Positions 12,001 through 15,000 of a stretch of DNA of 64,000 bases are shown here, piece after piece (position 1 is the stretch's first letter; each line of letters opens with the position of its first letter). The DNA comes from Escherichia coli (GTDB lineage: Bacteria; Pseudomonadota; Gammaproteobacteria; Enterobacterales; Enterobacteriaceae): assembly GCF_048403405.1 (NCBI RefSeq), contig NZ_CP183129.1, one strand, 5' to 3'. The position numbers were made by a program.

Positions 12001-15000
12001 GCGGGTGAGAAGCCTGGGATGGTGAATGTGCAGCGACTGGAGTTTGGGCGGGGGTAGGTATTGCCATTTCCTTAACCCCACCTGATAACCCTTAGCCCAA
12101 TGGTGAGTGCGGAACTGTCAAACCCGCTCACCGGGCTGAGTTTCGATGTAGCAAGAATTATCTCCCTCCAGACCACCACGGAATATTCGGTAACACTGAA
12201 GGAACCTGTTTTTCACCATGTAGCCTTCGTTAATCGACACCTTTCTCAGACTGTAAAGTTGCTTAAGTGTTTTGACACATTATGATTATTAATAGTTGTA
12301 ATAAATCATTGAGTAACAATTGATAGGCAAAAACATATAGGATAATTCTAGTGTGATCTGTATTTTGTGTAACCTGGAAGTTAGTAAAATTCCTGGAGAT
12401 AATCAGAAAGGGAATTTCAAATAAGCATAATAATTTCCAGTGAAACTATTCGTCGATTTTAAGAAATGTCTGCTCAGGTATATCTACTGAGGGATGGTGT
12501 TGGTTGTAACACTGGTTAAAATAAACACACAAAAATAATCAAGATGTATATTTTAATCGACAAAAATAATTACTCGCGGAATTATTGATGGGTGTTAAAT
12601 AACACCGTTTAAATGTGATGTAAATCACAAATGTGACTGTAAAGAGGGTGCTGTAGATATAAATAAGAAGTACATGAGTGAATTTTAAATAGGGAAATAG
12701 TTTCTTGCTAAACAATTTATTGGTAATCAATCGCATGCGTTCTGGTTTGAGATAGATTACAGGTGTTACTACGCATAAAATTCATGGGTGGTATTATAAT
12801 CAAGTAGTTAACAGTAATAGTGAAAAATAATTTCTTGCGAAATTAGCGGCCCGTTTTGAATAAGTGTGTTCCGGAGTAATCCAGAACGCATGCTGCTTTA
12901 CATCTTTTTCAAGCCATATTGGTTAAGCAAAAAGAAGTAGAAATAATTTCCTGAGAAATTAACTCAACATTCTGAAACGGCCAGTTTTCTGAAATTACCA
13001 GAAGACCGAATACATTCATGCCTGAAGAATGGATTAGAAGAAACGAGACGGAAATAGATCTATTTATCCCTGCGGAAATAATTTCTGCTGAAATTGTTTG
13101 CGGCTATTAAAAAGGTCAAACCGTCTGACTAAATTTTATCCAGTTACAAACAAGTATTACCTCCAGTGTATTGGTAGCTGTTAAGCCAGGGGCGGTAGCA
13201 TACCTGAAGAGAATAGGATCACATCACCAAATGGCAAGAAGTGGATTTGAAGTCCAGAAAGTCACCGTAGAGGCATTATTTCTACGAGAAATACGAACAC
13301 GCTTTGGTAAGTTCCGTCTGGGATATCTGTGGGCGATTCTCGAACCCTCTGCGCATTTGCTGATACTGTTGGGCATTTTTGGTTACATTATGCACCGCAC
13401 GATGCCAGACATCTCGTTCCCGGTGTTTTTACTTAATGGCCTGATTCCCTTTTTTATCTTTAGCAGTATCAGCAAACGTTCTGTAAGTGCTATTGAAGCG
13501 AACCAGGGGCTGTTTAATTATCGCCCAGTAAAACCCATCGATACGATCATTGCGCGCGCCCTGCTTGAGACGCTGATTTACGTTTCTGTTTATATTCTGC
13601 TTATGCTCATTGTCAGGATGGCAGGCGAATATTTCGAGATAACAAATTTTTTACAACTTGTGGCTACCTGGAGTCTGCTGATCATTCTTTCATGCAGCGT
13701 CGGCTTAATATTCATGGTCGTTGGTAAAACCTTCCCCGAAATGCAAAAGGTTCTGCCGATACTTCTTAAGCCCCTTTATTTCATCTCCTGCATCATGTTC
13801 CCTCTGCACTCAATTCCAAAGCAATACTGGTCATATCTACTCTGGAACCCACTAGTGCATGTCGTGGAGTTAAGCCGTGAGGCCGTTATGCCTGGCTATA
13901 TTAGCGAAGGTGTGAGTCTGAACTACCTGGCAATGTTCACATTGATAACTCTGTTCATTGGTCTGGCGTTATATCGAACTCGTGAGGAGGCAATGCTGAC
14001 ATCATGATTAAGATTGAGAATTTGACGAAGTCATATCGCACGCCAACGGGTCGACATTATGTGTTTAAGGATTTAAACCTCGAAATCCCTTCAGGAAAAA
14101 GTGTTGCCTTTATTGGTCGTAATGGTGCGGGTAAATCAACGTTACTGAGAATGATTGGTGGCATTGACCGCCCCGACAGTGGAAAGATCATCACTAATAA
14201 AACAGTATCATGGCCAGTCGGCCTTGCAGGTGGATTTCAGGGAAGTTTAACCGGACGCGAAAACGTAAAATTTGTTGCGCGGTTATACGCGAAGCAAGAA
14301 GAACTGAAAGAGAAAATTGAGTTTGTTGAAGAATTTGCCGAACTTGGCAAGTACTTCGATATGCCGATTAAAACTTACTCATCAGGTATGCGATCGCGTT
14401 TAGGCTTTGGTTTAAGCATGGCATTTAAGTTTGATTATTATATCGTCGATGAAGTAACGGCGGTCGGTGATGCCAGGTTTAAAGAAAAATGCGCTCAATT
14501 GTTTAAAGAAAGGCATAAAGAATCTAGCTTTTTAATGGTTTCACATAGTTTGAATTCATTGAAAGAGTTTTGTGATGTGGCGCTATTCATACCTAGAGAT
14601 CATCAGACTTGTCTTTATCAGAATATTAATGACGCAATTAAGTTATATCAAAATGATGAAAATTTGAACATTTAGTGGAGCTAAAAATGCGTAAAGTTAT
14701 CACCTTTGGTACATTTGATGTATTACATATAGGTCATATAAATATCTTAAAAAGGGCAAAAAAAATGGGGGACTATCTAATAGTTGGCGTCTCATCCGAT
14801 TATTTGAATTTCTCAAAAAAACAGAGGTATCCTGTTTATCCGGAAACTGAGCGTCTTGAAATAATTAGGTCCTTAAAATTTGTAGATGAAGTTTTTATTG
14901 AAGAGTCATTGGAATTAAAGGGCGAGTATATTAAAAAATTTAAGGCAGATATCTTAGTGATGGGAGATGATTGGCTAGGGCGATTTGATGAATATAAGGA

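Follow-up and report, generated by a model that had tools for sequence, protein, structure and literature searches.

The stretch of Escherichia coli DNA analyzed here (64,000 nucleotides of contig NZ_CP183129.1, assembly GCF_048403405.1; hereafter the window) carries an array of six in-register copies of the palindrome AATAATTTC-N4-GAAATTATT, which a repeat search of the window assigned to one repeat family. The genes yghD (gspM-family, ending at 12057) and kpsM (ATG at 13231) are separated by 1.17 kb of non-coding DNA, and the array is situated there, in the long leader of region 3 of the group 2 capsule (kps) locus. It is a real and selectively maintained array of cis elements within a well-studied virulence leader, and it is restricted to Escherichia. 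The cores are tentatively interpreted, with somewhat less than even confidence, as sequence-specific protein-binding sites on duplex DNA, which would form an operator-like array derived from a tandem module of approximately 130 bp and modulate transcription to the ops element.

Architecture and origin of the array

In the repeat search the copies spanned positions 12428-12463, 12564-12599, 12695-12730, 12825-12860, 12941-12976, and 13076-13111, with start-to-start spacings of 136, 131, 130, 116, and 135 bp. The conserved unit within these spans is the 22-bp palindrome AATAATTTC-N4-GAAATTATT, of which ATTTC-N4-GAAAT is the inner part. A preliminary description of this DNA had regarded GAAAT and ATTTC as the inverted arms of the core, but this pair sits within the left half of the conserved palindrome, and in three lineages copy 5 has CGCAT in place of the upstream GAAAT, with the rest of the core intact. 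The same description had counted about five repeats at intervals of 115-135 bp. The repeats themselves were confirmed, but their number is six, and the quoted interval holds only once the overlooked copy at 12564, which fills a gap of 265 bp, is added.

Copy 1 (TAATAATTTC-CAGT-GAAACTATT, 12428-12450) contains one A.C mismatch on the + strand, and copy 2, the overlooked one, reads AAATAATTAC-TCGC-GGAATTATT (12564-12586). The weakest member is copy 3 (AAATAGTTTC-TTGC-TAAACAATT, 12695-12717), whose A.A and C.T mismatches are kept across alleles and which is in register with its neighbors at distances of 131 and 130 bp. Whereas copies 1-3 have one or two mismatches each, the 7-bp arms are perfect in copy 4 (AAATAATTTC-TTGC-GAAATTAGC, 12825-12847), which has no counterpart in the five-copy alleles described below, and in copy 5 (AAATAATTTC-CTGA-GAAATTAAC, 12941-12963). 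Copy 6 (AAATAATTTC-TGCT-GAAATTGTT, 13076-13098) forms nine pairs if T.G is allowed. The distances of the copies from the kpsM start codon range from 133 to 803 nt. As had been stated earlier, the array ends just upstream of ops: copy 6 ends 66 nt before the JUMPstart element containing ops (13164-13202, + strand; Rfam RF01707, 53.6 bits, E=4e-11), which forms the 3' limit of the region and is separate from the array.

Chance similarity within A+T-rich DNA, raised at the outset as a possible explanation of the repeats, is contradicted by the shuffling statistics. The 21-mer on which the preliminary description was based had three matches with up to three mismatches in the 64-kb window, all of them in the array, compared to 0.03 expected, and none of 100 shuffled sequences reached three. 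A weight matrix was then trained on copies 4-6 alone with the center masked, so that copies 1-3 were held out. When the whole window was scanned on both strands, this matrix ranked copies 1 and 2 highest among the hits not used in training (16.2 bits each), followed by a best match outside the array of 14.4 bits, and copy 3 scored 10.0 bits; shuffled leaders contained on average 0.12 matches of at least 10 bits, and three such matches occurred in none of 500 shuffles. No comparable sites were found by the matrix scan in the remaining 63 kb of the window. The 7-mer TAATTTC/GAAATTA was the most over-represented one (seven observed, 0.43 expected; z=10). The period of the array, 129.6 ± 8 bp with a coefficient of variation of 0.062, has a probability of approximately 4e-5 under random placement, and the partner columns of the palindrome pair in 83% of the cells, compared to 29-52% if the partner columns are slid.

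A regular period together with copy-number variation between alleles (six, five, or one units) is the pattern of a tandem duplication, and the array probably represents an old tandem amplification of a module of approximately 130 bp, of which only the selected parts would still be recognizable. Tandem Repeats Finder reported no repeat in the region, because only a core of approximately 23 bp is still alike between the units. The segments between the cores are not significantly alike overall (z=1.0), and homology of whole units was not significant. A 12-mer, ATAATCAAGnAG, recurs in register approximately 16-18 bp before copies 1-5. The first of these five second in-register elements, ATAATCAGAAAG, is located at 12399-12410 on the + strand, and the others are found at 12535-12546, 12659-12670, 12796-12807, and 12929-12940. 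The best shared 12-mer scored 54 compared to a null value of 51.4 ± 1.0, and its offset spread of 12 was below that of 60 out of 60 shuffles. This element lends modest support to a homology of the units that may extend beyond the core. A degenerate "copy 0" (AATAAATCA-TTGA-GTAACAATT, 12300-12321), 129 bp before copy 1 and upstream of the promoter P1, is a speculative further member of the array, suggested by its register and by a pattern of conserved arms and variable center in the alignment only; its score with the held-out matrix was 0.8 bits.

Distribution, copy number, and rates of change

Of 5426 complete E. coli genomes, 1621 had the leader, at 78-100% identity to the window sequence, and neither the leader nor unit 4 is multicopy, each being found at a median of one place per genome. 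Plasmid and phage searches yielded no match to the array. Dispersed bacterial repeats (REP/BIME, ERIC/IRU, and MITEs) were rejected on these grounds. Sixteen alleles were aligned, including those of E. whittamii and Escherichia sp. E1V33. Except for the unit carrying copy 4, all copies were present in all 16 alleles. The overall identity of the Escherichia kps region 3 alleles examined is 78-100%, and the repeats are conserved in every one of them, so that the conservation check proposed with the preliminary description did not refute the array. When one genome per bacterial species was scanned on the basis of KpsM, 38 loci were retrieved. The three Escherichia loci among them had the six-copy array, and neither the array nor a comparable repeat was found at any of the 35 enterobacterial kpsM loci of other genera (Pantoea, Mixta, Rahnella, Kluyvera, Citrobacter, Yersinia, and others), where the regions upstream of kpsM were mostly 300-870 bp in length.

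Alignments placed the unit missing from most alleles, which has a length of 116 bp and contains copy 4, at approximately 12823-12938. The five-copy allele is short by exactly one unit, and the deletion junction lies inside the AAATAATTTC common to copies 4 and 5. A 91-mer specific for unit 4 occurred in 418 genomes, as compared to 1601-1621 genomes bearing the leader, so that approximately 26% of the leader-bearing E. coli genomes have six copies and 74% have five. Approximately 100 genomes contain a near-identical one-unit leader, in which P1 and copy 1 precede, at a distance of ~55 bp, the stretch otherwise found after copy 6. In these genomes, exemplified by E. coli PF9285 (L047, 3001-3460), this leader adjoins a frameshifted kpsM fragment, IS5, and a kpsD-like gene, and the locus looks like a group 2 remnant beside a differently organized capsule locus.

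Rates of change were determined as parsimony steps per site on the tree of the 16 alleles. The 5' arms changed at 0.19 and the 3' arms at 0.37 steps/site, compared to 0.60 in the rest of the leader, 0.18 in JUMPstart, and 1.79 in the four central bases of the palindromes. The arms thus evolve more slowly (P=4e-5) and the centers faster (P=2e-7) than the rest of the leader. The 5' arms are as conserved as JUMPstart, and the 5' arm of copy 3 is invariant in all 16 alleles. For calibration, fourfold-degenerate sites of kpsM were analyzed on ten of these strains, giving 0.54 steps/site for kpsM, 0.57 for the leader background, 0.19 and 0.33 for the 5' and 3' arms, and 1.67 for the centers. Overall, the leader thus changes about as fast as synonymous sites, and the arms are constrained two- to three-fold. 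The centers change approximately three times faster than neutral, mainly in copies 1-3, and have a G+C content of 62% within a leader that is 65% A+T. Among the 16 alleles there are 28 distinct combinations of copy and center, including nine different centers of copy 2, and the center of copy 1 is hypervariable. Exchange between copies, a mutational hot spot at the palindrome center, and diversifying selection are possible causes of this high rate. The center of copy 1 (12437-12442) forms a Dcm site, CCAGG, in several alleles, and one allele has CCAAG, the product to be expected if 5-methylcytosine is deaminated. Dcm deamination may explain part of the variation in copy 1, but not that in copies 2 and 3.

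These data also bear on the idea that the array is a functionless remnant of the tandem amplification, with cores homogenized by short-tract gene conversion or slippage and centers moved from copy to copy in the same way. Such a history would account for the regular spacing despite unrelated flanks. Recombination between cores does occur, as seen from the 116-bp deletion junction in the shared AAATAATTTC and from copy numbers of six, five, or one; identical centers are found in different copies (TTGC in copies 3 and 4, TCGC in 2 and 3, TCAG in 3 and 4, and CCGC in 2 and 4); the many homoplasic sites in the leader show recombination between alleles; and the array is absent from every other genus examined. 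On the other hand, private deviations have been kept, namely GAAACTATT in copy 1 and TTAC/TTGC in copy 2 (in all alleles but E27), and copy 3 retains its private AATAGTTTC...AAACAATT, with a single allele (L053) reading AATAATT. The persistence of such deviations argues against frequent homogenization, which would erase them. Moreover, the identity tracts of 9-10 bp are very short for gene conversion, and within each copy the rate at the arms is two- to three-fold below that of synonymous sites, as selection predicts. A relic of this kind is considered rather unlikely.

Leader transcript and nature of the cores

According to a 2022 review, the transcript start of the region 3 promoter PR3 was mapped in K5 to a position 741 bp upstream of kpsM. 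The K5 strain ABU 83972 (L052) carries the five-copy allele, as do most strains, and this allele is 116 bp shorter than that of the window. Since the published distance refers to five copies, the start of P1 is placed at ~12373 in the window, with the putative -10 hexamer TATTTT at 12361-12366 (+ strand; start at ~12373-12375). This placement agrees with an independent study of enteroaggregative E. coli (EAEC) 042, in which a CRP site lies ~250 bp downstream of P1 and contains the -10 hexamer of a second promoter, P2 (PMC12360894). An alternative start at 12490, obtained by counting 741 bp back in the window and leaving copy 1 upstream of the promoter, was rejected as the published distance is that of the five-copy allele; counting in this manner in the six-copy allele leads to an unrelated TATATC at 12479-12484. 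With P1 at ~12373, all six copies would be inside the transcribed leader, which would have a length of 857 nt in the window allele, and copy 1 would cover approximately +55 to +77.

The CRP site, an exact TGTGA-N6-TCACA at 12614-12629, is located between copies 2 and 3 and has the P2 -10 hexamer embedded at 12619-12624. In EAEC 042 it has been characterized by chromatin immunoprecipitation (ChIP) followed by sequencing, bandshift, and promoter mutagenesis (PMC12360894). The P2 hexamer reads TGTAAA in the window and TATAAA in most alleles, and judging from this difference P2 may be weaker in the window allele. The distance between the -10 hexamers of P1 and P2, 258 bp, corresponds to two array units, and a TGA followed by an A/T-rich hexamer can be read 48-55 bp after most cores. 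A perfect TATAAT at 12795-12800, present in all aligned alleles inside the in-register ATAATCAAGTAG element and 25 bp before copy 4, may represent an additional promoter within the leader. A GATC (Dam) site is located at 12355-12358, 3 bp upstream of the P1 -10 hexamer, in the invariant block TGTGATCTGTATTTTGTGTA.

H-NS footprints have been reported from -135 to -21 and from +141 to +219 around the PR3 start, the downstream one being essential for repression at 20°C (2022 review). By our own conversion they correspond to ~12239-12353 and ~12514-12593 in the window, and the downstream footprint covers copy 2 and the ATAATCAAG element. In another view, the cores would be structural A+T-rich elements (narrow-minor-groove or curved DNA, or promoter-like AATAAT) rather than sites of a specific regulator, and on horizontally acquired A+T-rich DNA they would serve as nucleation points for H-NS filaments or bridges, or as traps for RNA polymerase or sigma-70. 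The A+T content of the leader (65%) and the location of footprints on both sides of P1, with the one needed at 20°C covering copy 2, are in line with this possibility, and AATAAT matches five of the six positions of the -10 consensus, with P2 demonstrated inside the array (PMC12360894). However, the cores match the H-NS motif poorly, copy 1 lies outside the reported footprints, and neither the G+C-rich center (62%) nor the exact C and G in TTTC...GAAA would be expected of A+T-tract binding. A purely structural role appears distinctly improbable.

The conservation pattern of the cores is that of an operator for a dimer: inverted half-sites are conserved (0.19-0.37 steps/site in both datasets) around a free central spacer (1.67-1.79), compared to neutral values of 0.54-0.60. 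Conserved arms around a freely varying center are the usual anatomy of such operators. As the arm sequence has been kept in six paralogous copies with dissimilar flanks, the sequence itself appears to be recognized and not merely its ability to pair, and the conservation of both arms in sequence fits recognition of duplex DNA by a symmetric protein. The known binding of proteins to this leader is in line with such a reading: CRP binds between copies 2 and 3, the H-NS footprint essential in the cold covers copy 2, and YbdO/CitR binds a fragment with copies 5 and 6 (see below). Whereas the array, its pattern of conservation, its confinement to Escherichia, and its variation in copy number are observations, we infer that selection concerns duplex DNA and not RNA and that the cores are bound by a protein, as well as any effect on transcription. 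Tandem amplification of the module of region 3 regulatory DNA would have taken place in an ancestral Escherichia kps locus, and the units would since have drifted at about the neutral rate, except in the arms of the palindrome and some other short elements. Contacts by a dimeric protein, or by a nucleoprotein complex nucleating on the sites, would be made with the two A+T-rich arms and not with the four central bases. How much transcription from P1 and P2 reaches ops, where RfaH loads, would then depend on occupancy of the six sites over 650 bp, which could act as roadblocks, anchor loops, or tether the H-NS/SlyA complex.

The preliminary description had left open whether the cores bind a dimeric protein or form a recurring RNA hairpin. 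Of these two options the evidence leans toward the former, as the hairpins are weak and without strand preference, mismatches are conserved, and covariation is almost lacking. In an RNA-based scenario the cores would act in the 857-nt transcript, either as A-U-rich hairpins or as single-stranded AAUAAUUUC or GAAAUUA recognized by an RNA-binding protein or ribonuclease, or by melting between 20°C and 37°C and thereby altering pausing, Rho access, or RNA stability before ops. Transcription of all six copies from P1 and the pairing of the arms in 83% of the cells are compatible with this scenario, and on the + strand changes that give G.U are approximately three times as frequent as those giving A.C (~10 to 3 by hand count). 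Copy 6 forms a stable hairpin of -8.6 kcal/mol, and copies 2 and 6 have high pairing probabilities in a fold from 12490. Furthermore, weak mismatched hairpins resemble RNA thermometers, and the capsule is strictly temperature-controlled (2022 review). The leader is also poor in C (14.5%, compared to 20.1% G), as expected of an untranslated RNA escaping Rho.

Energies of the RNA hairpins, given for the + and - strand, respectively, were -0.8/-5.9, -2.0/-1.8, and -1.4/-0.8 kcal/mol for copies 1-3 and -3.6/-4.5, -4.2/-6.8, and -8.6/-2.5 kcal/mol for copies 4-6, with no preference for either strand. On the transcribed strand all hairpins but one are weak (-0.8 to -4.2 kcal/mol), and that of copy 1 is far better on the opposite one. 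Mismatches persist unrepaired across more than 20% divergence: copy 2 has A.G or G.G, copy 3 has A.A in every allele, and copy 1 has A.C in all alleles but E27. Only one of the nine pairs covaries, by a single event in copy 3. RNAalifold paired most cores with other partners and chose the core hairpin for copy 5 only, with a covariation term of -1.8 out of -121 kcal/mol. An Rfam search at E-values up to 1 detected only JUMPstart as significant, with two other hits below the gathering score and on the opposite strand, and no terminator-like sites were found in the leader. The distance of 133-803 nt to the start codon is not that of a classical ribosome-binding-site thermometer. A structured cis-regulatory RNA, be it a hairpin array or a thermometer, was therefore rejected with respect to covariation, strand preference, stability, Rfam membership, and position relative to the ribosome-binding site, and a role of the cores in RNA in the wider sense is regarded as unlikely, although it deserves some weight.

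Known regulators were compared with the cores by consensus and geometry, and no binding protein could be assigned. None of those named in the preliminary description (H-NS, SlyA, IHF, and MprA) fits, the first two and IHF having been scanned by consensus. For SlyA and the MarR family, the best match to the consensus, a TTAGCAAGCTAA-like 12-bp palindrome, had three mismatches in 12 positions and involved copy 3 only. The high-affinity H-NS motif, a tCGATAAATT-like 10-mer, was matched with two to three mismatches in 10 positions, best at copy 3. The left part of copies 5 and 6 fits exactly the degenerate Fis pattern, and with two to three mismatches the IclR box, if G-N3-AWWWWWT-N3-C and TGGAAATNATTTCCA, respectively, are taken as the consensuses; the upstream GAAAT that it includes is not conserved, and a Fis or IclR fit of this left-hand palindrome, GAAAT-A-ATTTC, would leave the right-hand arm unexplained. 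The sequence of the cores, ATTTC-N4-GAAAT, led to the rejection of CRP and FNR. An exact CRP match exists only at the separate site 12614-12629, and the sequences closest to the FNR site (TTGAT-N4-ATCAA), with two mismatches, lie beside the cores, not on them. NagC/Mlc appeared attractive because of the A+T arms, the G+C center, and the CRP site between two boxes, but was rejected on geometry, as the 23-bp NagC site (nagB operator of MG1655, TTTAATTTGCGATACGAATTAAA) has the odd-centered form TT-N9-AA, whereas the cores have the even-centered TT-N8-AA and are 1 bp off. The T-N11-A box of LysR-type regulators such as YbdO/CitR and LrhA likewise requires an odd center, and the symmetry of the core is even. 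NsrR, which emerged from a literature hit, has no reported link to kpsM binding. As for MprA, Goh et al. report that previous studies had neither detected direct binding to the capsule promoters nor predicted a site there. YbdO/CitR has been reported to bind the 300 bp upstream of kpsM, based on bandshift and a 241-fold enrichment in ChIP with quantitative PCR (PMC9141747), and in window coordinates the bound 300-bp fragment holds copies 5 and 6; this protein is only a lead.

Several observations weigh against the operator interpretation. None of SlyA, IHF, H-NS, Fur, FNR, CRP, IclR, AllR, RcsAB, Fis, KdgR, Lrp, ArcA, and MarA explains all six cores by consensus or geometry, and no core-like site was found upstream of citR/ybdO in K-12. 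The co-regulated promoter region PR1 lacks a clear copy, the best matches there scoring 12.6-13.1 bits. One unit is dispensable in about three quarters of the strains, and copy 1, which sits between both H-NS footprints, has not been reported as protected. The adjacent spacings of 116-136 bp do not correspond to a constant number of helical turns, which disfavors strict looping between neighbors. An uncontacted spacer would be expected to evolve at the neutral rate, yet the centers change about three times faster, and the excess of G.U-creating over A.C-creating changes described above is a weak hint of selection on RNA. A more far-reaching version of the operator interpretation, which we consider quite improbable, is that the palindromes are operators of one regulator (possibly the indirect link for MprA, IHF, or BipA, or else YbdO/CitR) gating elongation before RfaH, and that the centers together with gain and loss of units constitute a fast-evolving "tuning dial" of capsule expression.

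Neighboring features and comparison with known systems

Further conserved elements were observed in and around the leader. A 30-nt block, GAAGACCGAATACATTCATGCCTGAAGAAT (13001-13030), shows no variation in seven alleles, among them the 78%-identical E27 type, and hardly any in the full set of 16. A leader peptide encoded by a 30-codon open reading frame at 13018-13110, which starts in this block and overlaps copy 6, was rejected because E27 has a stop at codon 5. Between copy 6 and JUMPstart, the sequence TTTATCCAGTTACAAA (13135-13150) scarcely varies among the alleles and is also found in the one-unit leader, and TTATCCAGT resembles the DnaA box consensus at seven of nine positions. A 16-nt inverted repeat, GCATGCGTTCTGGTTT / AATCCAGAACGCATGC (12733-12748 and 12878-12893, 94% complementary), has its arms on either side of copy 4. 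The five-copy majority allele lacks the 3' arm, and the repeat shows several wobble-type substitutions. The G+C-rich inverted repeat GGTGAGTG...CGCTCACC (12101-12131), situated just after the yghD stop codon and kept in divergent alleles, is probably the terminator of the gsp-like operon. In allele L051 (CFSAN018748), a run of G replaces GGATGGTGTTGG at ~12492-12505 and is accompanied by a 5-bp deletion, which may be a sequencing or homopolymer artifact or a real variant.

The PR1 region (upstream of kpsF, - strand) contains two of the best hits outside the array, at 30750-30772 and 31013-31035 (13.1 and 12.6 bits). The former is located at approximately -118 to -94 of PR1-1, inside the published H-NS/SlyA site II, and is unlike the PR3 cores in its inner half and its spacing. 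PR1 and PR3 share the exact 11-mer GGAGATAATCA (12395-12405 and 31058-31068). Homology between both regions was rejected as marginal, the top local alignment scoring 31 compared to a 95th percentile of 29 and to 28 in the control orientation.

The array apparently has not been described before. A repeated palindrome in the kpsM leader is mentioned neither in the 2022 review and the CRP paper (PMC12360894) nor in the RyhB paper (which covers the last 150 nt only), a preprint on sequence type ST131, and a TraDIS study; the earlier impression that such an array had not been described thus agrees with the accessible literature, which excludes Stevens 1997 and Xue 2009. Group 2 capsules (K1, K5, and others) are major virulence factors, and a known peculiarity of the region 3 promoter is the great length of its 5' leader, which "moderates" transcription by an unexplained mechanism, while MprA, LrhA, BipA, and YbdO have been reported to act indirectly or at unmapped sites. 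The conserved periodic palindrome provides this leader with discrete mutable elements and predicts where a factor should bind. Furthermore, the published location of the start "741 bp upstream" holds only for the five-copy allele, and the length difference of one unit between major lineages matters for reporter design and strain comparison.

Among known systems, the array resembles repressor systems with auxiliary operators and DNA looping, namely gal (OE/OI), nagE-nagB, and deo (O1-O3), in having several palindromes of ~20 bp at distances of 90-140 bp or more around or downstream of a promoter, with conserved arms and a loosely constrained center. As in nagE-B, a CRP site lies between two of the sites, here between copies 2 and 3. 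Unlike in those multi-operator systems, there are six sites, all downstream of the main promoter, extending over 650 bp and not in helical phase. A second parallel is the downstream H-NS silencing element of proU, which has spaced high-affinity H-NS sites. It shares with the kps leader promoter-distal A+T-rich sites that are transcribed and belong to a gene responding to temperature or osmolarity, but the kps cores differ by being palindromic, by their G+C-rich center, by their poor fit to tCGATAAATT, and by the position of one core outside the footprints. Within the kps locus itself, PR1-1, PR1-2, and PR1-3 (PMC5738388) and kpsM P1 and P2 (PMC12360894) are likewise repeated promoter-like modules in a regulatory region; neither paper mentions a repeated palindrome, however, and only P1 and P2 have been shown to be active. 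Finally, JUMPstart/ops occupies the same leader before the first gene and is similarly conserved (0.18 steps/site), but it is a single-copy element of different sequence that has RfaH as its partner and occurs in many genera, whereas the array is specific to Escherichia.

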